DNA of 64,000 nucleotides. Origin: Schmidtea nova (lineage: Eukaryota). Under the pieces are notes generated by a model, which saw only the letters and a list, made by a program, of their open reading frames with translations, did not search any database and was not told the origin of the DNA. The stretch lies in the NCBI GenBank assembly GCA_044892505.1, contig CM097882.1, positions 312,542,001 to 312,606,000 of the forward strand. The letters are read 5' to 3'. This document shows positions 1 to 27,298 of the stretch, piece by piece (the stretch's first letter is position 1; the number at the start of each line of letters is the position of its first letter). Made by a program: the position numbers and the translations under genes.

Positions 1-330
1 TGCTTTTTAAACTCTGTAAATAAAAATTAAAGTAAATATTTTGTAAAGTAATTTTTGTATTAAATATCCAATCTTTTTAATCTGATAAATTGTCTTTGAG
101 AGTTATTAAATTGGGAGACCAAGTATTCTGCAACGTATGTCACTTATTCTAGACTTATCAACTTCAAAAGAATACAGTCGCAAAGCTGGATGACGAAATC
201 CAAAGAACCAGAAACTTCCATTCAGATTGAACAATTATATTTTGACTGTGATTGTTTAGGGACTAATCCATGTTGATTAGATAATCTGTAAAAAAAATAT
301 GTCAAACTTGTTATATTTAATAAATGTTTA
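1..330 (+). mobile_element. E0: 3' UTR end of the RLE non-LTR retrotransposon (cut by window start)
   Basis: Matches the 3' UTR of E2/E7 and ends ...AATAAATGTTTA joined to tRNA nt 19 like all other copies. Confidence 0.93.
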
Positions 331-385
331 TTATCACGTCTGCCTAACACGCAGAAGGTCCCCGGTTCGATCCCGGGTCGAACCA
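331..385 (+). pseudogene. 5'-truncated tRNA-Val(AAC), nt 19-73
   Basis: TTATCACG...GAACCA abuts element 3' end; first 18 nt (5' acceptor strand and box A) absent. Confidence 0.93.
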
Positions 386-565
386 AATTTTTCTCAATTC
401 ATTATTTGACTTTTATTATATTTGCAACTCTTTTTTTAATTCATAACGCAATTTTGTTGTTGAATTCTCTACTTTGTACATAAATTTTATTCAAGTGAAT
501 TCAGTACCTTTTGTCAAGGTAATTCGAAAATCAAACATGCACAACAATTGTTAGTTGAAACTGTC

Positions 566-638
566 GGTTCGATGGTGTAGCGGTTATCACGTCTGCCTAA
601 CACGCAGAAGGTCCCCGGTTCGATCCCGGGTCGAACCA
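566..638 (+). tRNA. trnV(AAC): tRNA-Val(AAC), intronless, eukaryotic type
   Basis: Cloverleaf: acceptor GGTTCGA/TCGAACC, anticodon arm TCTGC-CT AAC AC-GCAGA, T arm CCCGG-TTCGATC-CCGGG, discriminator A73, no encoded CCA. Confidence 0.97.
573..627 (+). promoter_or_regulatory. Pol III type-2 internal promoter: box A (573-583) and box B (617-627); same in every intact copy
   Basis: TGGTGTAGCGG fits box A; GGTTCGATCCC fits box B consensus. Confidence 0.85.
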
Positions 639-640
639 AA

Positions 641-645
641 TTTTT
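641..645 (+). terminator. Pol III oligo-dT terminator (T5), present after every tRNA copy; a T7 run follows in the spacer
   Basis: ...GAACCA-AA-TTTTT-CTC, 3 nt after the discriminator. Confidence 0.8.
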
Positions 646-818
646 CTCAATTCATTATTTGACTTTTATTATATTTGCAACTCTTTTTTTAATTCATAAC
701 GCAATTTTGTTGTTGAATTCTCTACTTTGTACATAAATTTTATTCAAGTGAATTCAGTACATTTTGTCAAGGTAATTCGAAAATCAAACATGCACAACAA
801 TTGTTAGTTGAAACTGTC

Positions 819-891
819 GGTTCGATGGTGTAGCGGTTATCACGTCTGCCTAACACGCAGAAGGTCCCCGGTTCGATCCCGGGTCGAACCA
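819..891 (+). tRNA. trnV(AAC): tRNA-Val(AAC)
   Basis: Identical to 566-638. Confidence 0.97.
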
Positions 892-1071
892 AATTTTTCT
901 CAATTCATTATTTGACTTTTATTATATTTGCAACTCTTTTTTTAATTCATAACGCAATTTTGTTGTTGAATTCTCTACTTTGTACATAAATTTTATTCAA
1001 GTGAATTCAGTACATTTTGTCAAGGTAATTCGAAAATCAAACATGCACAACAATTGTTAGTTGAAACTGTC

Positions 1072-1144
1072 GGTTCGATGGTGTAGCGGTTATCACGTCT
1101 GCCTAACACGCAGAAGGTCCCCGGTTCGATCCCGGGTCGAACCA
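1072..1144 (+). tRNA. trnV(AAC): tRNA-Val(AAC)
   Basis: Identical to 566-638. Confidence 0.97.
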
Positions 1145-1324
1145 AATTTTTCTCAATTCATTATTTGACTTTTATTATATTTGCAACTCTTTTTTTAATT
1201 CATAACGCAATTTTGTTGTTGAATTCTCTACTTTGTACATAAATTTTATTCAAGTGAATTCAGTACATTTTGTCAAGGTAATTCGAAAATCAAACATGCA
1301 CAACAATTGTTAGTTGAAACTGTC

Positions 1325-1397
1325 GGTTCGATGGTGTAGCGGTTATCACGTCTGCCTAACACGCAGAAGGTCCCCGGTTCGATCCCGGGTCGAACCA
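1325..1397 (+). tRNA. trnV(AAC): tRNA-Val(AAC)
   Basis: Identical to 566-638. Confidence 0.97.
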
Positions 1398-1577
1398 AAT
1401 TTTTCTCAATTCATTATTTGACTTTTATTATATTTGCAACTCTTTTTTTAATTCATAACGCAATTTTGTTGTTGAATTCTCTACTTTGTACATAAATTTT
1501 ATTCAAGTGAATTCAGTACATTTTGTCAAGGTAATTCGAAAATCAAACATGCACAACAATTGTTAGTTGAAACTGTC

Positions 1578-1650
1578 GGTTCGATGGTGTAGCGGTTATC
1601 ACGTCTGCCTAACACGCAGAAGGTCCCCGGTTCGATCCCGGGTCGAACCA
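1578..1650 (+). tRNA. trnV(AAC): tRNA-Val(AAC)
   Basis: Identical to 566-638. Confidence 0.97.
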
Positions 1651-1830
1651 AATTTTTCTCAATTCATTATTTGACTTTTATTATATTTGCAACTCTTTTT
1701 TTAATTCATAACGCAATTTTGTTGTTGAATTCTCTACTTTGTACATAAATTTTATTCAAGTGAATTCAGTACATTTTGTCAAGGTAATTCGAAAATCAAA
1801 CATGCACAACAATTGTTAGTTGAAACTGTC

Positions 1831-1903
1831 GGTTCGATGGTGTAGCGGTTATCACGTCTGCCTAACACGCAGAAGGTCCCCGGTTCGATCCCGGGTCGAA
1901 CCA
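1831..1903 (+). tRNA. trnV(AAC): tRNA-Val(AAC)
   Basis: Identical to 566-638. Confidence 0.97.
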
Positions 1904-2083
1904 AATTTTTCTCAATTCATTATTTGACTTTTATTATATTTGCAACTCTTTTTTTAATTCATAACGCAATTTTGTTGTTGAATTCTCTACTTTGTACATA
2001 AATTTTATTCAAGTGAATTCAGTACATTTTGTCAAGGTAATTCGAAAATCAAACATGCACAACAATTGTTAGTTGAAACTGTC

Positions 2084-2156
2084 GGTTCGATGGTGTAGCG
2101 GTTATCACGTCTGCCTAACACGCAGAAGGTCCCCGGTTCGATCCCGGGTCGAACCA
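2084..2156 (+). tRNA. trnV(AAC): tRNA-Val(AAC)
   Basis: Identical to 566-638. Confidence 0.97.
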
Positions 2157-2285
2157 AATTTTTCTCAATTCATTATTTGACTTTTATTATATTTGCAACT
2201 CTTTTTTTAATTCATAACGCAATTTTGTTGTTGAATTCTCTACTTTGTACATAAATTTTATTCAAGTGAATTCTTTCAAGGTTCG

Positions 2286-4920
2286 ATGACTCAATCACCT
2301 GCTGCTCAGTCAACTGCTGCTGATGTGATGACTCAGTCTATTGGAAATCAGTCAACTGTGACGAAGAAATATGAATTAGAAAACATTCTCAAGTATCAAA
2401 TTTCCAGTTTGCAATGTTTTCAATCGATTTTGGATTATTTTTCGCAACTAAATGGTGGAAATCTCGCTACTGCCTCAGTTCTTTCTGATGCGAATGCAAG
2501 TCAACGGAGTTCTTTCGATCAAGGATCTAAAATTTCTCAAAACCAATCTGATAATATGCCACTTTCTTATGCTGATATTGAGACTAAATTCACTAAATCA
2601 AAGGATTTACTGATTGTCAAGCGCCTGGATTCATTGGAGTCTCAATTTATGAATATGGCTGAAAAGTTAGATTATTTGGTTTCTTTTTTTTAATGGCTCT
2701 GTTGATGATTTATCAGATTTTCCTAAAGTAAATGAAAATAATTTAAATAATAATCCTTTCAATAAAAATAAAGTTTTTGATATCAAAGATAAATTAATTG
2801 TAAATAATGTAGTTTTAGATAAATCAAATATTTCAGAATTTATTGAAAATAATATTGCTAAAATTCCTAATAGTTTAATTGATGTAAATAATAAAATGTG
2901 TAATTCAAATAATAAATTTCTAAATAACCCTAATAAAGAGAATGTTAAACATTTTAATAATCCCAAAGAAACATCTTCAATTGATTTGACTAACGATAAA
3001 ATTATGCCAAATGAAAACATAGAAATAATTATTAAAAATAATAAAAAATCTGTTAAAATTATAGAACCTAATAAAACAACTAAACAGAAGTATGATAAAT
3101 TTGAATTTAAAAATCTGGTTCGTATTTTAACGAAAAGGGAACGCCAGAAAATCTTGAATGCCTTCCCTGCTTTAATACAACTAATTAAAAAGAAAGAATC
3201 ACAGAGTAAATATTTTGAAATTAATAAATTTCTTTCGAGCAAAGATTTTAATGTGAATCACTTGAATTTAAATAATTTTGATTATTTTTTCTATAGAAAT
3301 TGTAATCTTTGTGTATCTTTAAAATTGAACAACGCTCCTGTCATTTTATCAGCACCAAAACCTGTTGTTTTAAAAACTATTAAATTAATTGACCATAATA
3401 TCGTCAAAATAAATTCTGAAATCCCTGACTTTGTTCGAGCTCCAATGTCAATTCGAAGATTTTTATTCAATCTTTCGCACGATCTTTCAAACACTGTTTC
3501 CATCAAGGATGAGAAACACAGGGGAAATAAAATAAATAACATTCTTACTTCAATGAAACATAAACAACAATTACCAGATTATTTAATAAAATCAAACATT
3601 AAATACGAAAATGGTGAGTTCTTATTATTAGATTTGACTAACGATAAAATCAAATTGAACGACGATAATAACTTGATAAAATCAAATTTTTCTGAACTTA
3701 CTAGAAGTCAGATTAAAAATCTTTACTATTCTTATCCTTCTCTTAAGGAAGTTTGTTTCGTTGAAAATCTTGAAACAAGATCATCATCCGTTAGTAAAAT
3801 TATCGAATCTTTAAAGTTAATTAATGAATTTCCAAAAAATATCATTTTTAAAGAGGGTAAATTTTATCAGTCTGATAAAAGAACAATCTCACCTAGTAGT
3901 TCTCCTGACATAATGTTCAACCTTGGTCTTTTTAATTTGGCTAGTATGAGTAGAAAAGATTGTGAATTAAAATCCATTTTAGAGAAGACTGGTTGTGACT
4001 TTAAAATAGTTGAAATAATATTCTACCTCAACTATTTAGGCTTGACTCAATCTTTAGAATTTTGCAAAAATCAAACTTATTCTGATTATGTGAGGAATTA
4101 CGTCTGTAATTGCTGCTTGATAAACTCACTCTGTAGTATTGCTGATGTTGATTCGCTTTCATCTGAAGATTTTGAGGGTTGGGCGACCGAAATTGTTCAG
4201 AAAATCCCAGTTTCTTCCTATTACTTCAATAGCTGCCAGGAAAAGCTTTTAAAGCTGAAGCAATGGGACATTTCAACTAAAATCAAAAGAATCCATAACG
4301 TTATTTCACCTGAAATAATATCTTATTTAAATAACTTTCTTGACTCTGTAGACGTAAAATTTCCATCTAAGTCTCAACAACATAATATTCTAATTAAATT
4401 AATGAAAGCTATCAATGACATTAAAATTTTTGATGACATACACGGAAATAAAGCAAAAAGACTTGTTTACTTTTTGCTAAGAGATGCCAAGAAATATTTG
4501 AATAAAAATCAACGATTCAGATTATTTGAATCGAGCAATAAATATTGCACTTCAGAGATGGAGAATATAATTTCAGTAATAATTGAGAACCTTACCAAAG
4601 TTACTGACCATGAAGTTACTACTCCTGAAATCACAGTTGAAGAAACGCCAATTGAAATAACTTGTGATCCTGAACCTATCGTCTTGATTAAGGAAATAAA
4701 CTGTTTAAAATGTAACAATATCATCGAAAAATGCATTCTTGTTAGAGATGGAACAAACGTCAACATCTGTGAAAGCTGTCTATTTGACGCAATTACCTTT
4801 GAAAAGCCGATTCCTGAAGCTACTAATTCGGATATCGAAGAAAATATAGAAACAAATTGTAAGAAATCTTGTCCAAGACCTAGAAAAACAGACAAGAAAA
4901 CATCAACCAAAGCAAAATGA
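2286..4920 (+). pseudogene. E1 ORF1, +1 frameshift at T8 (2684-2691); fragments 2286-2693 (135 aa) and 2896-4920 (674 aa)
   Basis: Colinear with the intact 877-aa ORF1 of E3/E5/E6/E7 except for one extra T. Confidence 0.88.
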
Positions 4921-4926
4921 AGATGT

Positions 4927-7900
4927 GTGCCTGCATCAGCTCAATCGTCTGCCATTCCCTCTAATGAGACTGATGCAGAGAGCACAACTAAAAATAATAT
5001 TTCAACTATCGACAATCGTGATCCTGAAGTGTGGTTTTCTGATAATGATATTGATTGGTATCTTGAAAACCACATTGATAATCCAATGCATGGATATATT
5101 AAATGCTTTATAGTAAATATCATCTGTTCTAACATCACAGAAGATATTGTTGAAATTCCACCATCTATTAGCAATGCTGAAATTGTATTTTGTCCACTCA
5201 ACATTAACAATTCGCACTGGATTCTTTTTGTTTATAGTAAGAAAATGTTATCTTCTTACTTTATTGACCCAATCCTTGCAAACAGACAAAAGCCAATCAA
5301 TAAACAAATGGCTCAGAGAATTAACCTAAAACTGAATAGATTTTTTAATCTAAATATATCTGTGTCCCGACATCCACACAAACATCTTGAATATCAAAAT
5401 AACAGCTTTGATTGTGGCCCATTTACGTGTGCTTATGCTGTGATTATCAGTAAAGATTTGAACAGCTTTCCAAATGGGTTCATAGAGAAAATTCGTACCA
5501 GTGTGCATGAAAATCAAAATCGTATGCAAATAACCGAATCCACCTTATTCGCTGGTACTAACTCCAAGATGGACATGACCAAAATAAATATCAAGAAAGC
5601 CCTTGCAAAAAAGAAAGTCATCACCAACACCTCAGATATGACCAAAGTATTGAACACTCAAAAACCGTGTGTGTCATCAATAATTAGTAAATATTACGAA
5701 AGTAATTCTAAAATAACAGTCTTATCTGCCGAACTAACTTTAAACCTAATTGCACAAAATACCTCCTTCATAGCTGATAATGTCACTTTCAAGCAGTTCA
5801 AAGGAATCGATCATGTTATAAGTATCATTCCTAAATTTAACGATTGGTGTCTCTTTGTCTATTCGAATAAACTTGACAGGAGCTACATGTTCGACTTCAA
5901 TTATCGAAACATTGATGAAAGGCTAATTGAAATTGGTGAAAAGATAACTGAATATCTGAATCAATTCACTCTTGTTTCTAAAATAAAATTCACACCTCAT
6001 CATAGAATTTCTCATCCAACATTTCATTCTTACGATGATCAATATTTTGCAAGTTCTTTTATTGTATTTTTTGAGAAACTTGTCTTTGAAAGAATACTGG
6101 ACAATGATAAGGTTTATGACTCATTAAGTGCTCTAAAATATCAGTCTTGTAAAGATCTTTCTCCTAGCCTAAGTTTCATTAATGGTAAAATATCCGACAA
6201 AATTATTGAGGAATATTTTGCTAGCCTAAACTTATCGACCAAATATATTCTTCTAAACACAACAATGTGTACTGCGCTTTCAGATGATTGCACTGAATAC
6301 TTGAAAGACTTTGTAAACATTGAGTGCATGATGAAGGCTACTATAATCTTTGTAATCATTTCTCCTCCAAGAGCCAACGACTTGCTCATGGTTATTGATT
6401 ACGACGCTGATGAGCACTATTTATTAAGCCCAGTCACTAATGACTTGTTCGTTATGACTGAAGGATTCTGCTATAAATTACTAATTAAAATTAATGAGAT
6501 TAGAGAGAGCACAGGACGTTCCTTGAAATCGCGTAATTGTCGACATGACGTTAAAGGTTCTGGCTTATTTAGTAGGTTATTAATCTGTGCCTTTATTAAA
6601 TATTATGCATTTGACCGATCTCTAGAAAATATCAATCTTCATGAAATTGGCAAAATTATCTACTCACTTGTGCCATTAGTTGATAAAAATGATAATGCTG
6701 AGGAAGAAAGACGACTAAAATCAAAAGCTGTAAACTCTTTAAAACTAAATTTAAAACAGCGAATAGAAAAAGCCAATAATCTTATAATTTCACTTGAACA
6801 CGCCAGTATTGATGAAATCATAAGTGGCATTCTTTCAAATATTCCTCGTCTTAAAGATTTGAACACCGATCACATTCGTACACCATATTTAGGTACTAAA
6901 ATAGAAAAAGCTAGAAAATTCAAAAATTCCACTGAATTTCTGTCAAACATGAAAAAGACTGTGTATAGGATTTTGGGTAATAACACAGAATCAATTGCAC
7001 CTCCTTTTCAGGAAATTATTGACACTTTCAGTCATCCTGATACATTACCTAGAAATTGGGAAAACATCTTAAAATTCACTAAGAGTTCTAAATTTAGTCT
7101 TGAATTAAATCCAATGACACCTAAAGAAATCCTTTCAAGTCTTTGCAAAGCTGACAACACTTCTCCAGGTCTTGATAATGTTTGTTATAAAGATCTTTTG
7201 TTATTAGACCCTGAATGTAAATTGCTAGCTTTTCTGTACAATAAAATCCTAAAATTAGACATTATTCCTACAAGTTGGAAATCATTTAAAACCATACTAA
7301 TCCCCAAACCAGATAAAAATGGCCAATATCATAAAATATATTCTTGGCGACCAATTGCCTTATTATCTGTCATTTACAAAGTCTTCGCTTCAGTTTTGGC
7401 AAATCGTCTAAGCTTATGGATAAGAAATAATTCCATGTTACACATTGGCCAAAAGGGTGGTTCGGAGTACGAAGGATGTATTGAACACAACTCTATTCTT
7501 TCTGCTATCGTCGAACATTCAAAATACAGCAAGTCTTCACCTTTAACGATAGCTTGGCTAGACATCAAAGATGCCTTCGGAAGTGTTCCACATGACTACA
7601 TGTGGACACTGTTAAAACACATAAATGTTAGTGATAGGTTTGTAGGAATTTTAAAACTGCTCTATACTGATACAAGCTCGTTTTATTGTTGCAATAAAAT
7701 GCAGACACCGGATATTCCAATAAAGAAAGGAGTTAAACAAGGTTGTCCGATCTCAATGATATTGTTTGCAATAGCTATTAACCCAGTACTTGAGTCTATT
7801 AATCTATCAAACGTTAATACTTTTACGATTGGAACATCTCCGGTACAGGTGTTGGCTTATGCGGATGATATCGCACTTATCGCGACAAATACCTCTGATC

Positions 7901-9537
7901 TGCAAATACTCATAAACGTTGCTGTAAACACTGCTAAAACAATTGGATTTGAATATCGTCCAGAAAAGTGCGCTTATATGCAATACCCTAAAATAGAAAC
8001 TGTAAGCGAGATTTCTGTCAACAACGTTCTTATAAAAAAGATTGCAACAAATGAATTTTACCAATACTTGGGAGTACCAATAGGTGACAATAATGATCAA
8101 AGTCCCTATGAAATTCTAAGCAAAGTAATTGAAGACACAAAGAAAATAGCAAATTCTGATCTTTACGGCTGGCAAAAACTTAAAGCGTATAAGGTCTTTC
8201 TGCATTCTCGCTTGATTTTTCCATTTAGAACTAGGGAAATCAAAACAAGTTCTTTAGCTGATTCGAGTAAAAATTCAAAATTAAATGTAAATAATACGAG
8301 TATTTTGAGGAGTCATCTTAGAAAAATATTGCACTTGCCACACTACTCTGAGATTAGCTATTTTTATAATTCTACTGAAAACGGCGGTGCAGGCTGCATA
8401 GACTTACTTGACGAGTATCATACACAGACAATCGTGTACTTTTTCCGTTTGTTAACATCAACGTGCGAATATTCGAAAAAGATAAATACAGACTCGCTTT
8501 TATTTGTCACAAGTCCGAGACTCGGAATCAAAAATCCAGTTCTTAAACAAAGTTTAGAATGGATAAATGGAAAAGACAGCAAGAAAAACAACAGTGGTTG
8601 CAAAACTCGATTTTATCGGTTGCGATCATCCATTGCTTACTTTTCTAAAGTTCACAACATTAAATTGTTATTTGAAACAGTGAAAGGGAATCCTTCTATC
8701 CGGATAACCACTACACTTAAGGGAACACGTATATTATTACCAACATTAAGAAAAGCCTTGTCAATGATTTTACATTCAGCTCTCCAGGATTCGTATCTCG
8801 AGAAATGGGAGAATAGCAATCATAATAATCTGCTTGTATCTGCGATTAAACTCTGTCCACTGGTCAACAGGCTTATTTTCCGCAGTGATTTGACAGAATT
8901 TGAATGGAGATTCGTCCATCGAGCAAGAACGAATACATTATCAATATTTGCGAAGCCATATAAAACTGGCGAAAATCGTCTTTGTCGTAGATGTAAGCTT
9001 GAAGACGAGACTTTATCACACGTTCTTCAAACTTGTAAAATGAACAAATCTTGGGCAACTAGTCGACATAACGCTTGCTTAGAAAAAATAAAAAGCGAGT
9101 TGAAAGATCCAAACTTGTTAGTTGTTGCGGATCATAAATGTTCCCTAGTACCGACATCAACTGAACGCGTTGATTTAATAATAACCAATAATGATAAAAA
9201 GACCATATTATTGGTAGACATGAAATGCCCAATCGATTCGGTGCCCAACTTTGATTTGGCTGATAAAAAAAACATAGAAAAGTATGATAAACTAAAATCA
9301 GAAATTAAAATAGCCAAACCCGATTATAAAGTTGAGTTGTTTACCTGCATCATAGGCTCATTAGGATCCATTGAAATTAAAACACCTGATCTTTTAGTAA
9401 AAATGGGAGTAAAAGAAAATAAAGTAAAACGTCTGATGAAAGAGTGTGCAATTAGCAATATTGCGCACTCGGCCAAAATTTGGTACTTTCATACCAATGG
9501 CTTTCTTCCAGATAATATAAGACAAACTTGTAAATAA
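4927..9537 (+). CDS. E1 ORF2 polyprotein: Ulp1-like protease(s), RT, CCHC, RLE. Frame is open from 4921; the track start is GTG; first ATG is 5086
   Basis: WFSDNDI/HW/IDP/QNNSFDCG; SPGLD, WRPIALL, LDIKDAFGSVPH, GVKQGCPIS, YADD, YLGV; CRRC-x8-H-x4-C, RHN, RVD..DMK..KY. Confidence 0.95.
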   Translation: MPASAQSSAIPSNETDAESTTKNNISTIDNRDPEVWFSDNDIDWYLENHIDNPMHGYIKCFIVNIICSNITEDIVEIPPSISNAEIVFCPLNINNSHWILFVYSKKMLSSYFIDPILANRQKPINKQMAQRINLKLNRFFNLNISVSRHPHKHLEYQNNSFDCGPFTCAYAVIISKDLNSFPNGFIEKIRTSVHENQNRMQITESTLFAGTNSKMDMTKINIKKALAKKKVITNTSDMTKVLNTQKPCVSSIISKYYESNSKITVLSAELTLNLIAQNTSFIADNVTFKQFKGIDHVISIIPKFNDWCLFVYSNKLDRSYMFDFNYRNIDERLIEIGEKITEYLNQFTLVSKIKFTPHHRISHPTFHSYDDQYFASSFIVFFEKLVFERILDNDKVYDSLSALKYQSCKDLSPSLSFINGKISDKIIEEYFASLNLSTKYILLNTTMCTALSDDCTEYLKDFVNIECMMKATIIFVIISPPRANDLLMVIDYDADEHYLLSPVTNDLFVMTEGFCYKLLIKINEIRESTGRSLKSRNCRHDVKGSGLFSRLLICAFIKYYAFDRSLENINLHEIGKIIYSLVPLVDKNDNAEEERRLKSKAVNSLKLNLKQRIEKANNLIISLEHASIDEIISGILSNIPRLKDLNTDHIRTPYLGTKIEKARKFKNSTEFLSNMKKTVYRILGNNTESIAPPFQEIIDTFSHPDTLPRNWENILKFTKSSKFSLELNPMTPKEILSSLCKADNTSPGLDNVCYKDLLLLDPECKLLAFLYNKILKLDIIPTSWKSFKTILIPKPDKNGQYHKIYSWRPIALLSVIYKVFASVLANRLSLWIRNNSMLHIGQKGGSEYEGCIEHNSILSAIVEHSKYSKSSPLTIAWLDIKDAFGSVPHDYMWTLLKHINVSDRFVGILKLLYTDTSSFYCCNKMQTPDIPIKKGVKQGCPISMILFAIAINPVLESINLSNVNTFTIGTSPVQVLAYADDIALIATNTSDLQILINVAVNTAKTIGFEYRPEKCAYMQYPKIETVSEISVNNVLIKKIATNEFYQYLGVPIGDNNDQSPYEILSKVIEDTKKIANSDLYGWQKLKAYKVFLHSRLIFPFRTREIKTSSLADSSKNSKLNVNNTSILRSHLRKILHLPHYSEISYFYNSTENGGAGCIDLLDEYHTQTIVYFFRLLTSTCEYSKKINTDSLLFVTSPRLGIKNPVLKQSLEWINGKDSKKNNSGCKTRFYRLRSSIAYFSKVHNIKLLFETVKGNPSIRITTTLKGTRILLPTLRKALSMILHSALQDSYLEKWENSNHNNLLVSAIKLCPLVNRLIFRSDLTEFEWRFVHRARTNTLSIFAKPYKTGENRLCRRCKLEDETLSHVLQTCKMNKSWATSRHNACLEKIKSELKDPNLLVVADHKCSLVPTSTERVDLIITNNDKKTILLVDMKCPIDSVPNFDLADKKNIEKYDKLKSEIKIAKPDYKVELFTCIIGSLGSIEIKTPDLLVKMGVKENKVKRLMKECAISNIAHSAKIWYFHTNGFLPDNIRQTCK
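5023..5451 (+). other. Ulp1/SENP (C48)-like cysteine protease domain in ORF2 (shown for E1; present in all copies)
   Basis: His97 (HW, 5215), Asp114 (5266), Gln157 and Cys163 (QxNxxDCG, 5413) in C48 order. Confidence 0.85.
7114..8091 (+). other. Non-LTR reverse transcriptase domain (shown for E1)
   Basis: RT motifs SPGLD to YLGV; YADD at 7858-7869. Confidence 0.96.
8983..9290 (+). other. CCHC zinc knuckle and restriction-like (PD-D/ExK) endonuclease (shown for E1)
   Basis: CRRC 8983, H 9019, C 9034; RHN 9064; RVD 9166; DMK 9217; KY 9280. Confidence 0.88.
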
Positions 9538-9542
9538 ATAAT

Positions 9543-9556
9543 TATATATATATATA
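9543..9556. repeat. (TA)7 tract at the start of the 3' UTR ((TA)8 in E6)
   Basis: Directly visible after the ORF2 stop in every complete copy. Confidence 0.85.
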
Positions 9557-9891
9557 AATATTTGCTTTTTAAACTCTGTAAATAAAATTTAAGGTAAATA
9601 TTTTGTAAAGTAATTTTTGTATTAAATATCCAATCTTTTTAATCTGATAAATTGTCTTTGAGAGTTATTAAATTGGGAGACCAAGTATTCTGCGACGTAT
9701 GTCACTTATTCTAGAATTATCAACTTCAAAAGAATACAGTCGCAAAGCTGGATGACGAAATCCAAAGAACCAGAAACTTCCATTCAGATTGAACAATTAT
9801 ATTTTGACTGTGATTGTTTAGGGACTAATCCATGTTGATTAGATAATCTGTAAAAAAATATGTCAAACTTGTTATATTTAATAAATGTTTA

Positions 9892-9946
9892 TTATCACGT
9901 CTGCCTAACACGCAGAAGGTCCCCGGTTCGATCCCGGGTCGAACCA
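9892..9946 (+). pseudogene. 5'-truncated tRNA-Val(AAC), nt 19-73
   Basis: Abuts E1 3' end. Confidence 0.93.
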
Positions 9947-10126
9947 AATTTTTCTCAATTCATTATTTGACTTTTATTATATTTGCAACTCTTTTTTTAA
10001 TTCATAACGCAATTTTGTTGTTGAATTCTCTACTTTGTACATAAATTTTATTCAAGTGAATTCAGTACATTTTGTCAAGGTAATTCGAAAATCAAACATG
10101 CACAACAATTGTTAGTTGAAACTGTC

Positions 10127-10199
10127 GGTTCGATGGTGTAGCGGTTATCACGTCTGCCTAACACGCAGAAGGTCCCCGGTTCGATCCCGGGTCGAACCA
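10127..10199 (+). tRNA. trnV(AAC): tRNA-Val(AAC)
   Basis: Identical to 566-638. Confidence 0.97.
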
Positions 10200-10379
10200 A
10201 ATTTTTCTCAATTCATTATTTGACTTTTATTATATTTGCAACTCTTTTTTTAATTCATAACGCAATTTTGTTGTTGAATTCTCTACTTTGTACATAAATT
10301 TTATTCAAGTGAATTCAGTACATTTTGTCAAGGTAATTCGAAAATCAAACATGCACAACAATTGTTAGTTGAAACTGTC

Positions 10380-10452
10380 GGTTCGATGGTGTAGCGGTTA
10401 TCACGTCTGCCTAACACGCAGAAGGTCCCCGGTTCGATCCCGGGTCGAACCA
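10380..10452 (+). tRNA. trnV(AAC): tRNA-Val(AAC)
   Basis: Identical to 566-638. Confidence 0.97.
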
Positions 10453-10632
10453 AATTTTTCTCAATTCATTATTTGACTTTTATTATATTTGCAACTCTTT
10501 TTTTAATTCATAACGCAATTTTGTTGTTGAATTCTCTACTTTGTACATAAATTTTATTCAAGTGAATTCAGTACATTTTGTCAAGGTAATTCGAAAATCA
10601 AACATGCACAACAATTGTTAGTTGAAACTGTC

Positions 10633-10705
10633 GGTTCGATGGTGTAGCGGTTATCACGTCTGCCTAACACGCAGAAGGTCCCCGGTTCGATCCCGGGTCG
10701 AACCA
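10633..10705 (+). tRNA. trnV(AAC): tRNA-Val(AAC)
   Basis: Identical to 566-638. Confidence 0.97.
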
Positions 10706-10885
10706 AATTTTTCTCAATTCATTATTTGACTTTTATTATATTTGCAACTCTTTTTTTAATTCATAACGCAATTTTGTTGTTGAATTCTCTACTTTGTACA
10801 TAAATTTTATTCAAGTGAATTCAGTACATTTTGTCAAGGTAATTCGAAAATCAAACATGCACAACAATTGTTAGTTGAAACTGTC

Positions 10886-10958
10886 GGTTCGATGGTGTAG
10901 CGGTTATCACGTCTGCCTAACACGCAGAAGGTCCCCGGTTCGATCCCGGGTCGAACCA
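10886..10958 (+). tRNA. trnV(AAC): tRNA-Val(AAC)
   Basis: Identical to 566-638. Confidence 0.97.
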
Positions 10959-11087
10959 AATTTTTCTCAATTCATTATTTGACTTTTATTATATTTGCAA
11001 CTCTTTTTTTAATTCATAACGCAATTTTGTTGTTGAATTCTCTACTTTGTACATAAATTTTATTCAAGTGAATTCTTTCAAGGTTCG

Positions 11088-13722
11088 ATGACTCAATCAC
11101 CTGCTGCTCAGTCAACTGCTGCTGATGTGATGACTCAGTCTATTGGAAATCAGTCAACTGTGACGAAGAAATATGAATTAGAAAACATTCTCAAGTATCA
11201 AATTTCCAGTTTGCAATGTTTTCAATCGATTTTGGATTATTTTTCGCAACTAAATGGTGGAAATCTCGCTACTGCCTCAGTTCTTTCTGATGCGAATGCA
11301 AGTCAACGGAGTTCTTTCGATCAAGGATCTAAAATTTCTCAAAACCAATCTGATAATATGCCACTTTCTTATGCTGATATTGAGACTAAATTCACTAAAT
11401 CAAAGGATTTACTGATTGTCAAGCGCCTGGATTCATTGGAGTCTCAATTTATGAATATGGCTGAAAAGTTAGATTATTTGGTTTCTTTTTTTTAATGGCT
11501 CTGTTGATGATTTATCAGATTTTCCTAAAGTAAATGAAAATAATTTAAATAATAATCCTTTCAATAAAAATAAAGTTTTTGATATCAAAGATAAATTAAT
11601 TGTAAATAATGTAGTTTTAGATAAATCAAATATTTCAGAATTTATTGAAAATAATATTGCTAAAATTCCTAATAGTTTAATTGATGTAAATAATAAAATG
11701 TGTAATTCAAATAATAAATTTCTAAATAACCCTAATAAAGAGAATGTTAAACATTTTAATAATCCCAAAGAAACATCTTCAATTGATTTGACTAACGATA
11801 AAATTATGCCAAATGAAAACATAGAAATAATTATTAAAAATAATAAAAAATCTGTTAAAATTATAGAACCTAATAAAACAACTAAACAGAAGTATGATAA
11901 ATTTGAATTTAAAAATCTGGTTCGTATTTTAACGAAAAGGGAACGCCAGAAAATCTTGAATGCCTTCCCTGCTTTAATACAACTAATTAAAAAGAAAGAA
12001 TCACAGAGTAAATATTTTGAAATTAATAAATTTCTTTCGAGCAAAGATTTTAATGTGAATCACTTGAATTTAAATAATTTTGATTATTTTTTCTATAGAA
12101 ATTGTAATCTTTGTGTATCTTTAAAATTGAACAACGCTCCTGTCATTTTATCAGCACCAAAACCTGTTGTTTTAAAAACTATTAAATTAATTGACCATAA
12201 TATCGTCAAAATAAATTCTGAAATCCCTGACTTTGTTCGAGCTCCAATGTCAATTCGAAGATTTTTATTCAATCTTTCGCACGATCTTTCAAACACTGTT
12301 TCCATCAAGGATGAGAAACACAGGGGAAATAAAATAAATAACATTCTTACTTCAATGAAACATAAACAACAATTACCAGATTATTTAATAAAATCAAACA
12401 TTAAATACGAAAATGGTGAGTTCTTATTATTAGATTTGACTAACGATAAAATCAAATTGAACGACGATAATAACTTGATAAAATCAAATTTTTCTGAACT
12501 TACTAGAAGTCAGATTAAAAATCTTTACTATTCTTATCCTTCTCTTAAGGAAGTTTGTTTCGTTGAAAATCTTGAAACAAGATCATCATCCGTTAGTAAA
12601 ATTATCGAATCTTTAAAGTTAATTAATGAATTTCCAAAAAATATCATTTTTAAAGAGGGTAAATTTTATCAGTCTGATAAAAGAACAATCTCACCTAGTA
12701 GTTCTCCTGACATAATGTTCAACCTTGGTCTTTTTAATTTGGCTAGTATGAGTAGAAAAGATTGTGAATTAAAATCCATTTTAGAGAAGACTGGTTGTGA
12801 CTTTAAAATAGTTGAAATAATATTCTACCTCAACTATTTAGGCTTGACTCAATCTTTAGAATTTTGCAAAAATCAAACTTATTCTGATTATGTGAGGAAT
12901 TACGTCTGTAATTGCTGCTTGATAAACTCACTCTGTAGTATTGCTGATGTTGATTCGCTTTCATCTGAAGATTTTGAGGGTTGGGCGACCGAAATTGTTC
13001 AGAAAATCCCAGTTTCTTCCTATTACTTCAATAGCTGCCAGGAAAAGCTTTTAAAGCTGAAGCAATGGGACATTTCAACTAAAATCAAAAGAATCCATAA
13101 CGTTATTTCACCTGAAATAATATCTTATTTAAATAACTTTCTTGACTCTGTAGACGTAAAATTTCCATCTAAGTCTCAACAACATAATATTCTAATTAAA
13201 TTAATGAAAGCTATCAATGACATTAAAATTTTTGATGACATACACGGAAATAAAGCAAAAAGACTTGTTTACTTTTTGCTAAGAGATGCCAAGAAATATT
13301 TGAATAAAAATCAACGATTCAGATTATTTGAATCGAGCAATAAATATTGCACTTCAGAGATGGAGAATATAATTTCAGTAATAATTGAGAACCTTACCAA
13401 AGTTACTGACCATGAAGTTACTACTCCTGAAATCACAGTTGAAGAAACGCCAATTGAAATAACTTGTGATCCTGAACCTATCGTCTTGATTAAGGAAATA
13501 AACTGTTTAAAATGTAACAATATCATCGAAAAATGCATTCTTGTTAGAGATGGAACAAACGTCAACATCTGTGAAAGCTGTCTATTTGACGCAATTACCT
13601 TTGAAAAGCCGATTCCTGAAGCTACTAATTCGGATATCGAAGAAAATATAGAAACAAATTGTAAGAAATCTTGTCCAAGACCTAGAAAAACAGACAAGAA
13701 AACATCAACCAAAGCAAAATGA
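11088..13722 (+). pseudogene. E2 ORF1, +1 frameshift at T8 (11486-11493)
   Basis: Fragments 11088-11495 and 11698-13722. Confidence 0.88.
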
Positions 13723-18339: not shown

Positions 18340-18694
18340 ATAATTATATATATATATAAATATTTGCTTTTTAAACTCTGTAAATAAAAATTAAAGTAAA
18401 TATTTTGTAAAGTAATTTTTGTATTAAATATCCAATCTTTTTAATCTGATAAATTGTCTTTGAGAGTTATTAAATTGGGAGACCAAGTATTCTGCAACGT
18501 ATGTCACTTATTCTAGACTTATCAACTTCAAAAGAATACAGTCGCAAAGCTGGATGACGAAATCCAAAGAACCAGAAACTTCCATTCAGATTGAACAATT
18601 ATATTTTGACTGTGATTGTTTAGGGACTAATCCATGTTGATTAGATAATCTGTAAAAAAAATATGTCAAACTTGTTATATTTAATAAATGTTTA

Positions 18695-18749
18695 TTATCA
18701 CGTCTGCCTAACACGCAGAAGGTCCCCGGTTCGATCCCGGGTCGAACCA
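18695..18749 (+). pseudogene. 5'-truncated tRNA-Val(AAC), nt 19-73
   Basis: Abuts E2 3' end. Confidence 0.93.
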
Positions 18750-18929
18750 AATTTTTCTCAATTCATTATTTGACTTTTATTATATTTGCAACTCTTTTTT
18801 TAATTCATAACGCAATTTTGTTGTTGAATTCTCTACTTTGTACATAAATTTTATTCAAGTGAATTCAGTACCTTTTGTCAAGGTAATTCGAAAATCAAAC
18901 ATGCACAACAATTGTTAGTTGAAACTGTC

Positions 18930-19002
18930 GGTTCGATGGTGTAGCGGTTATCACGTCTGCCTAACACGCAGAAGGTCCCCGGTTCGATCCCGGGTCGAAC
19001 CA
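18930..19002 (+). tRNA. trnV(AAC): tRNA-Val(AAC)
   Basis: Identical to 566-638. Confidence 0.97.
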
Positions 19003-19182
19003 AATTTTTCTCAATTCATTATTTGACTTTTATTATATTTGCAACTCTTTTTTTAATTCATAACGCAATTTTGTTGTTGAATTCTCTACTTTGTACATAA
19101 ATTTTATTCAAGTGAATTCAGTACATTTTGTCAAGGTAATTCGAAAATCAAACATGCACAACAATTGTTAGTTGAAACTGTC

Positions 19183-19255
19183 GGTTCGATGGTGTAGCGG
19201 TTATCACGTCTGCCTAACACGCAGAAGGTCCCCGGTTCGATCCCGGGTCGAACCA
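19183..19255 (+). tRNA. trnV(AAC): tRNA-Val(AAC)
   Basis: Identical to 566-638. Confidence 0.97.
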
Positions 19256-19384
19256 AATTTTTCTCAATTCATTATTTGACTTTTATTATATTTGCAACTC
19301 TTTTTTTAATTCATAACGCAATTTTGTTGTTGAATTCTCTACTTTGTACATAAATTTTATTCAAGTGAATTCTTTCAAGGTTCG

Positions 19385-22018
19385 ATGACTCAATCACCTG
19401 CTGCTCAGTCAACTGCTGCTGATGTAATGACTCAGTCTATTGCAAATCAGTCAACTGTGACGAAGCAATATGAATTAGAAAACATTCTCAAATATCAAAT
19501 TTCCAGTTTGCAATATTTTCAATCGATTTTGGATTATTTTTCTCAACTAAATGGTGGAAATCTCGCTACTGCCTCAGTTCTATCTGATGCGAATGCAAGT
19601 CAACGGAGTTCTTTCGATCAAGGATCTAAAATTTCTCCAAACCAATCTGATAATATGCCACTTTCTTATGCTGATATTGAGACTAAATTCACTAAATCAA
19701 AGGATTTACTTATTGTCAAGCGCCTGGATTCATTGGAGTCTCAATTTATGAATATGGCTGAAAAGTTAGATTATTTGGTTTCTTTGTTTAATGGCTCTGT
19801 TGATGATTTATCAGATTTTCCTAAAGTAAATGAAAATAATTTAAATAATAATCCTTTCAATAAAAATAAAGTTTTTGATATCAAAGATAAATTAATTGTA
19901 AATAATGTAGTTTTAGATAAATCAAATATTTCAGAATTTATTGAAAATAATATTGCTAAAATTCCTAATAGTTTAATTGATGTAAATAATAAAATGTGTA
20001 ATTCAAATAATAAATTTCTAAATAACCCTAATAAAGAGAATGTTAAACATTTTAATAATCCCAAAGATACATCTTCAATTGATTTGACTAACGATAAAAT
20101 TATGCCAAATGAAAACATAGAAATAATTATTAAAAATAATAAAAAATCTGTTAAAATTATAGAACTTTATAAAACAACTAAACAGAAGTATGATAAATTT
20201 GAATTTAAAAGTCTGGTTCGTATTTTAACGAAAAGGGAACGCCAGAAAATCTTGAATGCCTTCCCTGCTTTAATACAACTAATTAAAAAGAAAGAATCAC
20301 AGAGTAAATATTTTGAAATTAATAAATTTCTTTCGAGCAAAGATTTTAATGTGAATCACTTGAATTTAATTAATTTTGATTATTTTTTCTATAGAAATTG
20401 TAATCTTTGTGTATCTTTAAAATTGAACAACGCTCCTGTCATTTCATCAGCACCAAAACCTGTTGTTTTAAAAACTATTAAATTAATTGACCATAATATC
20501 GTCAAAATAAATTCTGAAATCCCTGACTTTGTTCGAGCTCCAATGTCAATTCGAAGATTTTTATTCAATCTTTCGCACGATCTTTCAAACACTGTTTCCA
20601 TCAAGGATGAGAAACACAGGGGAAATAAAATAAATAACATTCTTACTTCAATGAAACATAAACAACAATTACCAGATTATTTAATAAAATCAAACATTAA
20701 ATACGAAAATGGTGAGTTCTTATTATTAGATTTGACTAACGATAAAATCAAATTGAACGACGATAATAACTTGATAAAATCAAATTTTTCTGAACTTACT
20801 AGAAGTCAGATTAAAAATCTTTACCATTCTTATCCTTCTCTTAAGGAAGTTTGTTTCGTTGAAAATCTTGAAACAAGATCATCATCCGTTAGTAAAATTA
20901 TCGAATCTTTAAAGTTAATTAATGAATTTCCAAAAAATATCATTTTTAAAGAGGGTAAATTTTATCAGTCTGATAAAAGAACAATCTCACCTAGTAGTTC
21001 TCCTGACATAATGTTCAACCTTGGTCTTTTTAATTTAGCTAGTATGAGTAGAAAAGATTGTGAATTAAAATCCATTTTAGAGAAGACTGGTTGTGACTTT
21101 AAAATAGTTGAAATAATATTCTACCTCAACTATTTAGGCTTGACTCAATCTTTAGAATTTTGCAAAAATCAAACTTATTCTGATTATGTGAGGAATTACG
21201 TCTGCAATTGCTGCTTGATAAACTCACTCTGTAGTATTGCTGATGTTGATTCGCTTTCATCTGAAGATTTTGAGGGTTGGGCGACCGAAATTGTTCAGAA
21301 AATCCCAGTTTCTTCCTATTACTTCAATAGCTGCCAGGAAAAGCTTTTAAAGCTGAAGCAATGGGACATTTCAACTAAAATCAAAAGAATCCATAACGTT
21401 ATTTCACCTGAAATAATATCTTATTTAAATAACTTTCTTGACTCTGTAGACGTAAAATTTCCATCTAAGTCTCAACAACATAATATTCTAATTAAATTAA
21501 TGAAAGCTATCAATGACATTAAAATTTTTGATGACATACACGGAAATAAAGCAAAAAGACTTGTTTACTTTTTGCTAAGAGATGCCAAGAAATATTTGAA
21601 TAAAAATCAACGATTCAGATTATTTGAATCGAGCAATAAATATTGCACTTTAGAGATGGAGAATATAATTTCAGTAATAATTGAGAACCTTACCAAAGTT
21701 ACTGACCATGAAGTTACTACTCCTGAAATCACAGTTGAAGAAACGCCAATTGAAATAACTTGTGATCCTGAACCTATCGTCTTGATTAAGGAAATAAACT
21801 GTTTAAAATGCAACAATATCATCGAAAAATGCATTCTTGTTAGAGATGGAACAAACGTCAACATCTGTGAAAGCTGTCTATTTGACGCAATTACCTTTGA
21901 AAAGCCGATTCCTGAAGCTACTAATTCGGATATCGAAGAAAATATAGAAACAAATTGTAAGAAATCTTGTCCAAGACCTAGAAAAACAGACAAGAAAACA
22001 TCAACCAAAGCAAAATGA
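19385..22018 (+). CDS. E3 ORF1, 877 aa, function unknown (coiled coil, Asn-rich region, C-terminal C4 zinc finger, basic tail)
   Basis: Long open frame conserved across copies; CLKC-x18-CESC. Confidence 0.88.
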   Translation: MTQSPAAQSTAADVMTQSIANQSTVTKQYELENILKYQISSLQYFQSILDYFSQLNGGNLATASVLSDANASQRSSFDQGSKISPNQSDNMPLSYADIETKFTKSKDLLIVKRLDSLESQFMNMAEKLDYLVSLFNGSVDDLSDFPKVNENNLNNNPFNKNKVFDIKDKLIVNNVVLDKSNISEFIENNIAKIPNSLIDVNNKMCNSNNKFLNNPNKENVKHFNNPKDTSSIDLTNDKIMPNENIEIIIKNNKKSVKIIELYKTTKQKYDKFEFKSLVRILTKRERQKILNAFPALIQLIKKKESQSKYFEINKFLSSKDFNVNHLNLINFDYFFYRNCNLCVSLKLNNAPVISSAPKPVVLKTIKLIDHNIVKINSEIPDFVRAPMSIRRFLFNLSHDLSNTVSIKDEKHRGNKINNILTSMKHKQQLPDYLIKSNIKYENGEFLLLDLTNDKIKLNDDNNLIKSNFSELTRSQIKNLYHSYPSLKEVCFVENLETRSSSVSKIIESLKLINEFPKNIIFKEGKFYQSDKRTISPSSSPDIMFNLGLFNLASMSRKDCELKSILEKTGCDFKIVEIIFYLNYLGLTQSLEFCKNQTYSDYVRNYVCNCCLINSLCSIADVDSLSSEDFEGWATEIVQKIPVSSYYFNSCQEKLLKLKQWDISTKIKRIHNVISPEIISYLNNFLDSVDVKFPSKSQQHNILIKLMKAINDIKIFDDIHGNKAKRLVYFLLRDAKKYLNKNQRFRLFESSNKYCTLEMENIISVIIENLTKVTDHEVTTPEITVEETPIEITCDPEPIVLIKEINCLKCNNIIEKCILVRDGTNVNICESCLFDAITFEKPIPEATNSDIEENIETNCKKSCPRPRKTDKKTSTKAK

Positions 22019-22024
22019 AGATGT

Positions 22025-25000
22025 GTGCCTGCATCAGCTCAATCGTCTGCCATTCCCTCTAATGAGACTGATGCAGAGAGCACAACTAAAAATAATATTT
22101 CAACTATCGACAATCGTGATCCTGAAGTGTGGTTTTCTGATAATGATATTGATTGGTATCTTGAAAACCACATTGATAATCCAATGCATGGATATATTAA
22201 ATGCTTTATAGTAAATATCATCTGTTCTAACATCACAGAAGATATTGTTGAAATTCCACCATCTATTAGCAATGCTGAAATTGTATTTTGTCCACTCAAC
22301 ATTAACAATTCGCACTGGATTCTTTTTGTTTATAGTAAGAAAATGTTATCTTCTTACTTTATTGACCCAATCCTTGCAAACAGACAAAAGCCAATCAATA
22401 AACAAATGGCTCAGAGAATTAATCTAAAACTGAATAGATTTTTTAATCTAAATATATCTGTGTCCCGACATCCACACAAACATCTTGAATATCAGAATAA
22501 CAGCTTTGACTGTGGCCCATTTACGTGTGCTTATGCTGTGATTATCAGTAAAGATTTGAACAGCTTTCCAAATGGGTTCATAGAGAAAATTCGTACCAGT
22601 GTGCATGAAAATCAAAATCGTATGCAAATAACCGAATCCACCTTATTCGCTGGTACTAACTCCAAGATGGACATGACCAAAATAAATATCAAGAAAGCCC
22701 TTGCAAAAAAGAAAGTCATCACCAACACCTCAGATATGACCAAAGTATTGAACACTCAAAAACCGTGTGTGTCATCAATAATTAGTAAATATTACGAAAG
22801 TAATTCTAAAATAACAGTCTTATCTGCCGAACTAACTTTAAACCTAATTGCACAAAATACCTCCTTCATAGCTGATAATGTCACTTTCAAGCAGTTCAAA
22901 GGAATCGATCATGTTATAAGTATCATTCCTAAATTTAACGATTGGTGTCTCTTTGTCTATTCGAATAAACTTGACAGGAGCTACATGTTCGACTTCAATT
23001 ATCGAAACATTGATGAAAGGCTAATTGAAATTGGTGAAAAGATAACTGAATATCTGAATCAATTCACTCTTGTTTCTAAAATAAAATTCACACCTCATCA
23101 TAGAATTTCTCATCCAACATTTCATTCTTACGATGATCAATATTTTGCAAGTTCTTTTATTGTATTTTTTGAGAAACTTGTCTTTGAAAGAATACTGGAC
23201 AATGATAAGGTTTATGACTCATTAAGTGCTCTAAAATATCAGTCTTGTAAAGATCTTTCTCCTAGCCTAAGTTTCATTAATGGTAAAATATCCGACAAAA
23301 TTATTGAGGAATATTTTGCTAGCCTAAACTTATCGACCAAATATATTCTTCTAAACACAACAATGTGTACTGCGCTTTCAGATGATTGCACTGAATACTT
23401 GAAAGACTTTGTAAACATTGAGTGCATGATGAAGGCTACTATAATCTTTGTAATCATTTCTCCTCCAAGAGCCAACGACTTGCTCATGGTTATTGATTAC
23501 GACGCTGATGAGCACTATTTATTAAGCCCAGTCACTAATGACTTGTTCGTTATGACTGAAGGATTCTGCTATAAATTACTAATTAAAATTAATGAGATTA
23601 GAGAGAGCACAGGACGTTCCTTGAAATCGCGTAATTGTCGACATGACGTTAAAGGTTCTGGCTTATTTAGTAGGTTATTAATCTGTGCCTTTATTAAATA
23701 TTATGCATTTGACCGATCTCTAGAAAATATCAATCTTCATGAAATTGGCAAAATTATCTACTCACTTGTGCCATTGGTTGATAAAAATGATAATGCTGAG
23801 GAAGAAAGACGACTAAAATCAAAAGCTGTAAACTCTTTAAAACTAAATTTAAAACAGCGAATAGAAAAAGCCAATAATCTTATAATTTCACTTGAACACG
23901 CCAGTATTGATGAAATCATAAGTGGCATTCTTTCAAATATTCCTCGTCTTAAAGATTTGAACACCGATCACATTCGTACACCATATTTAGGTACTAAAAT
24001 AGAAAAAGCTAGAAAATTCAAAAATTCCACTGAGTTTCTGTCAAACATGAAAAAGACTGTGTATAGGATTTTGGGTAACAACACAGAATCAATTGCACCT
24101 CCTTATCAGGAAATTATTGACACTTTCAGTCATCCTGATACATTACCTAGAAATTGGGAAAACATCTTAAAATTCACTAAGAGTTCTAAATATAGTCTTG
24201 AATTAAATCCAATGACACCTAAAGAAATCCTTTCAAGTCTTTGCAAAGCTGACAACACTTCTCCAGGTCTTGATAATGTTTGTTATAAAGATCTTTTGTT
24301 ATTAGACCCTGAATGTAAATTGCTAGCTTTTCTGTACAATAAAATCCTAAAATTAGACATTATTCCTACAAGTTGGAAATCATTTAAAACGATACTAATC
24401 CCCAAACCAGATAAAAATGGCCAATATCATAAAATATATTCTTGGCGACCAATTGCCTTATTATCTGTCATTTACAAAGTCTTCGCTTCAGTTTTGGCAA
24501 ATCGTCTAAGCTTATGGATAAGAAATAATTCCATGTTACACATTGGCCAAAAGGGTGGTTCGGAGTACGAAGGATGTATTGAACACAACTCTATTCTTTC
24601 TGCTATCGTCGAACATTCAAAATACAGCAAGTCTTCACCTTTAACGATAGCTTGGCTAGACATCAAAGATGCCTTCGGAAGTGTTCCACATGACTACATG
24701 TGGACACTGTTAAAACACATAAATGTTAGTGATAGGTTTGTAGGAATTTTAAAACTGCTCTATACTGATACAAGCTCGTTTTACTGTTGCAATAAAATGC
24801 AGACACCGGATATTCCAATAAAGAAAGGAGTTAAACAAGGTTGTCCGATCTCAATGATATTGTTTGCAATAGCTATTAACCCAGTACTTGAGTCTATTAA
24901 TCTATCAAACGTTAATCCTTTTACGATTGGAACATCTCCGGTACAGGTGTTGGCTTATGCGGATGATATCGCACTTATCGCGACAAATACCTCTGATCTG

Positions 25001-26635: not shown

Positions 26636-26990
26636 ATAATTATATATATATATAAATATTTGCTTTTTAAACTCTGTAAATAAAATTTAAAGTAAATATT
26701 TTGTAAAGTAATTTTTGTATTAAATATCAAATCTTTTTAATCTGATAAATTGTCTTTGAGAGTTATTAAATTGGGAGACCAAGTATTCTGCAACGTATGT
26801 CACTTATTCTAGACTTATCAACTTCAAAATAATACAGTCGCAAAGCTGGATGACGAAATCCAAAGAACCAGAAACTTCCATTCAGATTGAACAATTATAT
26901 TTTGACTGTGATTGTTTAGGCACTAATCCATGTTGATTAGATAATCTGTAAAAAAAATATGTCAAACTTGTTATATTTAATAAATGTTTA

Positions 26991-27045
26991 TTATCACGTC
27001 TGCCTAACACGCAGAAGGTCCCCGGTTCGATCCCGGGTCGAACCA
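26991..27045 (+). pseudogene. 5'-truncated tRNA-Val(AAC), nt 19-73
   Basis: Abuts E3 3' end. Confidence 0.93.
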
Positions 27046-27225
27046 AATTTTTCTCAATTCATTATTTGACTTTTATTATATTTGCAACTCTTTTTTTAAT
27101 TCATAACGCAATTTTGTTGTTGAATTCTCTACTTTGTACATAAATTTTATTCAAGTGAATTCAGTACATTTTGTCAAGGTAATTCGAAAATCAAACATGC
27201 ACAACAATTGTTAGTTGAAACTGTC

Positions 27226-27298
27226 GGTTCGATGGTGTAGCGGTTATCACGTCTGCCTAACACGCAGAAGGTCCCCGGTTCGATCCCGGGTCGAACCA
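27226..27298 (+). tRNA. trnV(AAC): tRNA-Val(AAC)
   Basis: Identical to 566-638. Confidence 0.97.

Follow-up and report, generated by a model that had tools for sequence, protein, structure and literature searches.

The window (the whole 64-kb stretch of DNA that was analysed) is built from a tandemly repeated 253-bp unit that comprises a 73-nt tRNA-Val(AAC) gene and a 180-nt spacer. This array holds 30 intact tRNA-Val genes and is interrupted by seven complete copies of a two-ORF retrotransposon, each 7618–7620 bp long and encoding a Ulp1 protease, a reverse transcriptase (RT) and a restriction-like endonuclease motif, and by two partial copies at the ends of the window (Table 1). The intact genes that flank or separate the elements number, in order, 7, 4, 2, 1, 2, 3, 6 and 5. 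Except for small indels, the tRNA is identical to Val-AAC_1 of Schmidtea mediterranea as described in PMC7962491. An assembly artefact was ruled out: the differences among copies are mostly synonymous, and the element is present in four runs (X1–X4) of one study.

Table 1 Features of the first complete element and of its junctions with the tRNA-Val array
Feature	Position	Strand	Remark
Intact tRNA-Val(AAC) gene immediately upstream of the element	2084..2156	+	Intact gene at the same place in 8/8 copies
Retained array spacer, 117 of 180 nt	2157..2273	+	Begins with a T5 run; compared with uninserted units
AATTC	2269..2273	+	Common to the array spacer and the other tRNA-Val flank
5′ ends of the element	2274, 11076, 19373, 27416, 35712, 44261, 53571, 62626	+	Same junction at each
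TTTCAA	2274..2279	+	Absent from its own array unit; in run X1, another tRNA-Val gene has these 6 nt at the end of its 5′ flank
tRNA-Val nt 1–9 (GGTTCGATG)	2280..2288	+	nt 7–9 are the ORF1 ATG (inner joint)
Junction in copy 2	11076..11090	+	Same as at 2274
ORF1	2286..4920	+	877 aa in the four intact complete copies; frameshifted near codon 135 in the copy at 2274
ORF2 frame	4921..9537	+	Same frame as ORF1, after its TGA; first start is GTG at 4927
3′ UTR	9538..9891	+	No poly(A); terminal 33 nt agree with LIN25_SM ends at 29 positions (by eye)
3′ junction, tRNA-Val nt 19–73	9892..9946	+	Cut just after the D-loop GG; 1–3 nt ambiguous

ORF1 carries a 1-bp frameshift in three of the eight copies (2274, 11076 and 27416), caused by a T run that is one letter longer, at 2684–2693 in the first of these and at the equivalent place in the other two; the copy at 53571 has a pure T run at the same place, with no extra letter. 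Neither a word search nor Pfam (no family above cut-off) returned a match for ORF1, and relatives surfaced only in a full HMMER search, which gave 18 unnamed proteins at E values up to 0.001. Since the six relatives that were aligned have 814–960 aa, ORF1 read from the ATG at 2286 is of normal length and not truncated. A distant relative, P0018, consists of one single frame of 2421 aa, and the similarity of ORF1 to its N terminus is not significant. Residues about 805–835 of ORF1 show a C-x2-C ... C-x2-C pattern that recurs in four of the six aligned relatives; it has no Pfam match and is possibly a zinc finger.

ORF2 is open in all seven complete copies. It contains a Ulp1/C48 protease domain (PF02902, E = 6.3e-7; HW...Q...DCG motif) and an RT domain (PF00078, E = 1.8e-29; YADD at residue 980). 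Towards its C terminus, residues C1355, C1358, H1367, C1372, R1416, D1418, D1433 and K1435 are invariant in 13 of 13 aligned proteins, and we take them to be a CCHC finger followed by a PD-(D/E)xK-like endonuclease motif; Pfam returned nothing for this part. The closest ORF2 relatives among the matches listed are unnamed and 38–58% identical over the RT–endonuclease part. A search of the Atlas returned generic RT clusters, and a scan of metagenome contigs confirmed one of 31 pattern matches, a distant RT fragment of 1.1 kb that lacks the junction. No unusual RNA structure was found in the 3′ UTR (z −0.65).

At the border between the two ORFs (4915–4938, and again 22013–22036), the TGA and two further codons are followed in one frame by GTG-CCT-GCA-TCA, and the ORF2 of most close relatives is called from M-P-A at the equivalent place. 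Judged from these letters, a non-AUG start, reinitiation or read-through are candidate routes for ORF2 expression. Contigs of runs X1–X4 were aligned to positions 18400–27700 of the window; in all four runs their depth is maximal at this border (21821–22131), with loose ends there and many indels at 22095–22108. The stretch 21821–22131 may be common to related families or to a shorter element.

The junction with the tRNA-Val array

The window displays both the target site and the anatomy of the junctions. All eight visible 5′ junctions are identical, as the preliminary description had stated, and read ...CAAGTGAATTC|TTTCAAGGTTCGATGACT. Each is preceded by an intact tRNA gene (chance of this in eight of eight copies, P = 0.15) and by the first 117 nt of the spacer, the other 63 nt being missing, and at all eight visible 3′ ends the element is followed by the tRNA from nt 19 onward. 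The same description was also right that no target-site duplication exists at the eight visible ends and that the ORF1 ATG (2286–2288) begins 12 nt past the junction. It had put the missing target at 81 bp; the 63 spacer bp and tRNA nt 1–18 are indeed displaced from their normal place (63 + 18), but because tRNA nt 1–9 are present next to the junction the net loss is 72 bp, that is, 63 bp of spacer and tRNA nt 10–18. Its equation of the 9-mer GGTTCGATG with tRNA nt 1–9, and of the start codon with nt 7–9, agrees letter for letter: the 9-mer occurs once in the element, and the chance of finding it within 30 nt is about 3e-5.

Insertion at 9892, tRNA nt 19, parts the A-box part of the tRNA gene from the B box. 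The internal promoter of tRNA genes consists of an A box and a B box, so the downstream tRNA fragments should be silent.

The retained spacer is identical to that of uninserted units in seven copies and differs from it once in one copy. No ATG occurs from 2157 to 2285, which leaves an AUG-free stretch of 129 nt ahead of the ORF1 start codon; the leader is 23% GC, and the lost 63 nt of spacer contain a 5-codon upstream frame. This difference is no more than suggestive. No unusual RNA fold was found at the 5′ junction, where 2157–2450 folds worse than 185 of 200 shuffles (z +1.27), and Rfam gave no ribozyme match at E up to 1 in window positions 1–12000; an HDV-like ribozyme is thus not seen at the junction, which leaves room for a divergent one.

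These properties bear on a reading, close to that of the preliminary description, in which every insertion regenerates the junction: the element RNA would start in the 117-bp spacer, the cDNA would anneal to the target and an 81-nt flap would be trimmed. R2 provides a precedent, since R2 RNAs with 9–36 nt of upstream 28S sequence yield junctions that do not vary, among them one with a fixed 7-bp deletion (PMC3774820), and in this respect the analogy with R2 drawn in the preliminary description is apt. The identity of the retained spacer with uninserted units, its lack of an ATG and the upstream frame in the lost part also favour regeneration. However, homogenisation of the array accounts for the spacer identity equally well, the fixed R2 deletions described in PMC3774820 span 2–7 bp, neither a junction fold nor a ribozyme came to light, and TTTCAA is left unexplained. 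We therefore regard regeneration at every insertion as a tentative possibility.

Recombination and selection among the copies

Recombination among the copies can be read directly from the window. The seven complete copies differ pairwise at 6–53 sites, and 644 of 2346 informative site pairs fail the four-gamete test, so that the copies are mosaics. Copies 3 and 5 differ at nine sites only, all within nt 54–339. Two of the 30 units (508 and 18872) carry a rare spacer variant; each directly follows an element, and the two elements concerned share their 3′ UTR haplotype (chance about 3 in 435). The mosaicism, this shared flank variant and the frameshift common to three of eight copies point to unequal exchange, and the eight junctions are thus not eight independent events.

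Together with the lack of 5′ truncation in any of the seven complete copies, these observations favour a purely DNA-level origin of the uniformity, in which unequal crossing-over spread the chance junction of a single insertion and active copies at other places renewed the interiors of the elements by gene conversion, with no RNA that carries the spacer. Against this stands the selection that is equally visible in the window. In ORF2, 29 polymorphisms are synonymous and 12 nonsynonymous (pN/pS 0.11, p = 9e-12); the corresponding counts for ORF1 are 11 and 19 (pN/pS 0.42, p = 0.02). The strong purifying selection on ORF2, which is open in every complete copy, indicates that the variation arose in working lineages and that the junction was carried by active ones, and it argues against duplication of a single dead copy as the whole story. 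Moreover, the same junction is common to two 5′ haplotypes that are about 3% apart (the nine sites in nt 54–339). The selection data would also allow gene conversion by active copies at other places, and we consider multiplication by DNA-level events alone possible, if rather unlikely. The preliminary description had named such duplication as the outcome that would undo its own reading; the copies are indeed shuffled, and at least one pair looks DNA-duplicated, but the selection on ORF2 opposes a full explanation of that kind.

Source of the first 15 nucleotides

Other tRNA-Val loci are visible among the aligned contigs of runs X1–X4. Two of the 24 loose ends listed, from a total of 462, lie directly before the tRNA start. 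One, from a single contig of run X1 with 229 loose letters, terminates ...GATAAATTCTTTCAA, and this flank joined to tRNA nt 1–9 equals the junction at 20 of 20 nt without a gap: AATTCTTTCAAGGTTCGATG. The chance of the 11 contiguous flank letters in register is about 3e-6, and that of the six that do not occur in the element's own spacer (TTTCAA) is about 1e-3. The other loose end, from run X3, lacks the match to the junction. The 30 loose letters adjoin their listed place, as verified on the RT motif at 24653 (W879). Since the X1 contig is placed at the tRNA start and not at the element start, it would continue as an uninserted tRNA, and because it departs from the array spacer upstream of AATTC it cannot simply stem from an inserted copy. 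Its 229 loose letters did not align to the window at 85%, and TAAATTTTA stands shortly ahead of AATTC in both the other flank and the array spacer. The locus may be another Val isoacceptor gene, because Val-TAC_1 of S. mediterranea starts with the same 22 nt (PMC7962491). The evidence for this second locus is one contig of one run; and because runs X1–X4 contain 0.78–0.81 of the window's words and differ from it at some sites, it is a candidate locus in the genome to which the window belongs. Among the same 24 of 462 loose ends, none shows the element joined to the other (...AATTCTTTCAA) flank.

In run X4, a joint of depth 972 within window positions 18756–18930 has a tRNA end and a tRNA start on its two sides and other letters between them; further, different flanks occur in this region in run X3. 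This points to at least one further tRNA-Val array with a different spacer. Among 32 of 1400 pieces listed, runs X2 and X4 also contain a sister family that shows, over 419 nt, 58 differences and 3 gaps; it is about 86% identical to the element at 19385–19800 and has a similar contig depth. Its alignment runs exactly from the ATG onward, with 73 unlike letters upstream, as would be expected if joining at the ATG had removed an earlier UTR.

The preliminary description had held that the first 15 nt look target-derived and resemble the lost spacer segment. The first part is supported, with another tRNA-Val flank and tRNA nt 1–9 as the best source. The second resemblance does exceed chance, as 3 of 2000 shuffles align as well, but the comparison was post hoc and gapped and requires a mismatch, a 3-nt gap and a 9-nt skip; to judge from the letters, the ungapped 20-nt match to the other locus is the better explanation. 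The lost segment may in turn have arisen as a copy of a flank and tRNA start that later decayed.

A decayed duplication of this kind would also suit a scenario with no deletion, in which inserted units keep an older, short spacer end whereas uninserted units gained about 60 bp and were then homogenised. The occurrence of TAAATTTTA shortly before AATTC on both sides and the likeness of the extra segment to flank plus tRNA start favour it. Yet no short-spacer uninserted unit is found among the 30 in the window, the 229 loose letters of the other locus do not align to the window at 85%, and the words shared are AT-rich, and we consider this scenario improbable.

A further reading invokes tRNA punctuation: host RNase Z would cut a read-through transcript at the 3′ end of the upstream tRNA, so that the RNA starts at 2157, the 117-nt spacer serves as leader and homology arm, tRNA nt 7–9 supply the start codon and 72 bp are replaced at each insertion. 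The intact tRNA ahead of all eight copies and the ATG-free 129-nt leader are consistent with this but weak, and we find no report of tRNA processing that sets the 5′ end of such an element in the literature searched (Repbase and subscription journals lie outside that scope). We think it quite improbable; if true, tRNA punctuation would play the part of the R2 ribozyme, and the junction would document that the element jumped from one tRNA gene family to another. That the first 13–15 nt were patched from the element's own unit by template jumps, with the match to the other locus due to chance, would make a second locus unnecessary and draws on a gapped similarity that beats shuffles, but the skip, mismatch and gap that it needs, set against an ungapped 20-nt match, make it very unlikely.

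The reading that we favour, with moderate confidence, is that the junction is an inherited double scar, two stacked joints, of a LIN25-like, tRNA-Val-specific retrotransposon. In this light the seeming deletion resembles a long-inherited scar and not the product of a new cutting mechanism. The element would nick tRNA-Val genes at about nt 18/19 and integrate by target-primed reverse transcription, as the family is known to do and as the 3′ junction observed here would suit. We suggest that an ancestor inserted in a different tRNA-Val gene with a flank ending ...AAATTCTTTCAA, and that its cDNA was fused there, by way of the ORF1 ATG, with tRNA nt 7–9, with loss of tRNA nt 10–18 and of any 5′ UTR. 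A copy with 15–20 nt of this former upstream target could then have entered the window's array and been joined to its spacer through the shared AATTC, 5 nt that would be the microhomology of the outer joint, dropping 63 bp. Thereafter the compound junction was inherited unchanged. Unequal exchange in the array passed it on in at least part of the copies, and retrotransposition probably did so too, from read-through RNA whose spacer anneals to the target, as proposed for R2. The host spacer would now be the AUG-free leader of the element.

Pol III read-through from the upstream tRNA was rejected as the source of full-length RNA, since the retained spacer contains T5 and T7 runs and the element 18 runs of at least five T; Pol II read-through or an unseen promoter is therefore assumed. 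Spliced-leader trans-splicing at the AAG before GTTCG is not needed and was set aside.

Relation to known retrotransposons

The RT domain and the C-terminal CCHC and PD-(D/E)xK-like motifs are those of an RLE-type non-LTR retrotransposon, and the Ulp1-like cysteine protease is that of the NeSL clade. R5 elements have two ORFs. Three of the ORF1 relatives found here lie on contigs equal in length to contigs with ORF2 relatives. The tRNA match points to a planarian host, probably a triclad, as for R5–LIN elements, although indirectly and for the host group only, and the 3′ terminus is of the LIN25 type (29 of 33 nt by eye; AT-rich, with no statistical test). No named R5/LIN protein occurs among the best 120 of 200 matches or among the 23 of 23 profile-search matches. 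Membership in the R5/LIN lineage of the NeSL clade is thus, from sequence comparison, likely but not proven. The element is not assigned to the LIN25_SM family itself, as all eight 3′ junctions lie at tRNA-Val nt 19, and is in our reading a new member of a known lineage at a new site. The Ulp1-like protease is described for NeSL families and Utopia-1_TSP and not for all members of the clade, and the planarian R5/LIN lineage, to which LIN25 belongs, has members that target 28S rRNA, tRNA-Arg and tRNA-Glu genes (PMC4640811).

LIN25_SM of S. mediterranea has a similar 3′ terminus (29/33 nt ungapped, or 35/39 with one 3-nt gap; by eye, AAWT01034431), and like the present element it lacks poly(A) and targets a tRNA gene (PMC4640811). 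Nucleotides 5–21 of its target tRNA-Glu equal those of tRNA-Val at 15 of 17 positions (by eye), but it inserts at nt 4/5, whereas the present site, nt 18/19, lies 14 nt further 3′ (PMC4640811). LIN15_SM (tRNA-Arg, in four isoacceptor genes) and NeSL-1_TV (tRNA-Pro) also insert inside tRNA genes, and LIN25 too uses several isoacceptor genes (PMC4640811). In contrast to the present element, which has lost 72 bp and carries foreign flank, the single 5′ boundary described for LIN15_SM duplicates about 40 nt of target, and NeSL-1_TV loses only a few nt (PMC4640811). We found no account of a tRNA-Val-targeting LIN element in the literature searched, although Repbase or subscription journals may hold the family.

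The phenomenon is known from R2 and Utopia; the present junction is a larger form of it with two layers, and the overlap of start codon and tRNA is unusual. R2 elements of springtail, sow bug, earwig and horseshoe crab have uniform 5′ junctions, with fixed 4- and 7-bp deletions and carried target pieces of 21–24 bp; uniformity goes with RNA that carries upstream 28S sequence, junction variants become fixed, and cDNA with upstream target may also join by microhomology with deletion (PMC3774820). The present element shares the invariant junctions, the fixed deletion and the carried target-derived 5′ sequence (PMC3774820). R2 deletions span 2–7 bp, however, and its 5′ end is set by an HDV-like ribozyme (PMC3774820). 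The present element has no UTR and gave no ribozyme match, its target loss is tenfold greater, and the piece that it carries matches another gene locus. In U2 snRNA arrays of Phytophthora, Utopia insertions likewise have an intact gene ahead of them in place of the missing 5′ portion of the target, but there the spacers have diverged, which makes the deletion undefinable, and target and host differ (PMC4640811).

If array duplication alone multiplied the junction, it is an ordinary scar. If new insertions reproduce it, the element, which has neither UTR nor ribozyme, would replace about 70 bp under homology guidance in nature, with relevance to second-strand priming and retrotransposon-based gene insertion. 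The tRNA-Val D-loop is a new target for the lineage, with the nick site shifted by 14 nt along nearly the same sequence, and LIN25 and the present element form a natural pair for the study of target choice. On the reading favoured here, a site-specific retrotransposon can keep a piece of its former target at its 5′ end, as a record of its move between tRNA gene loci.
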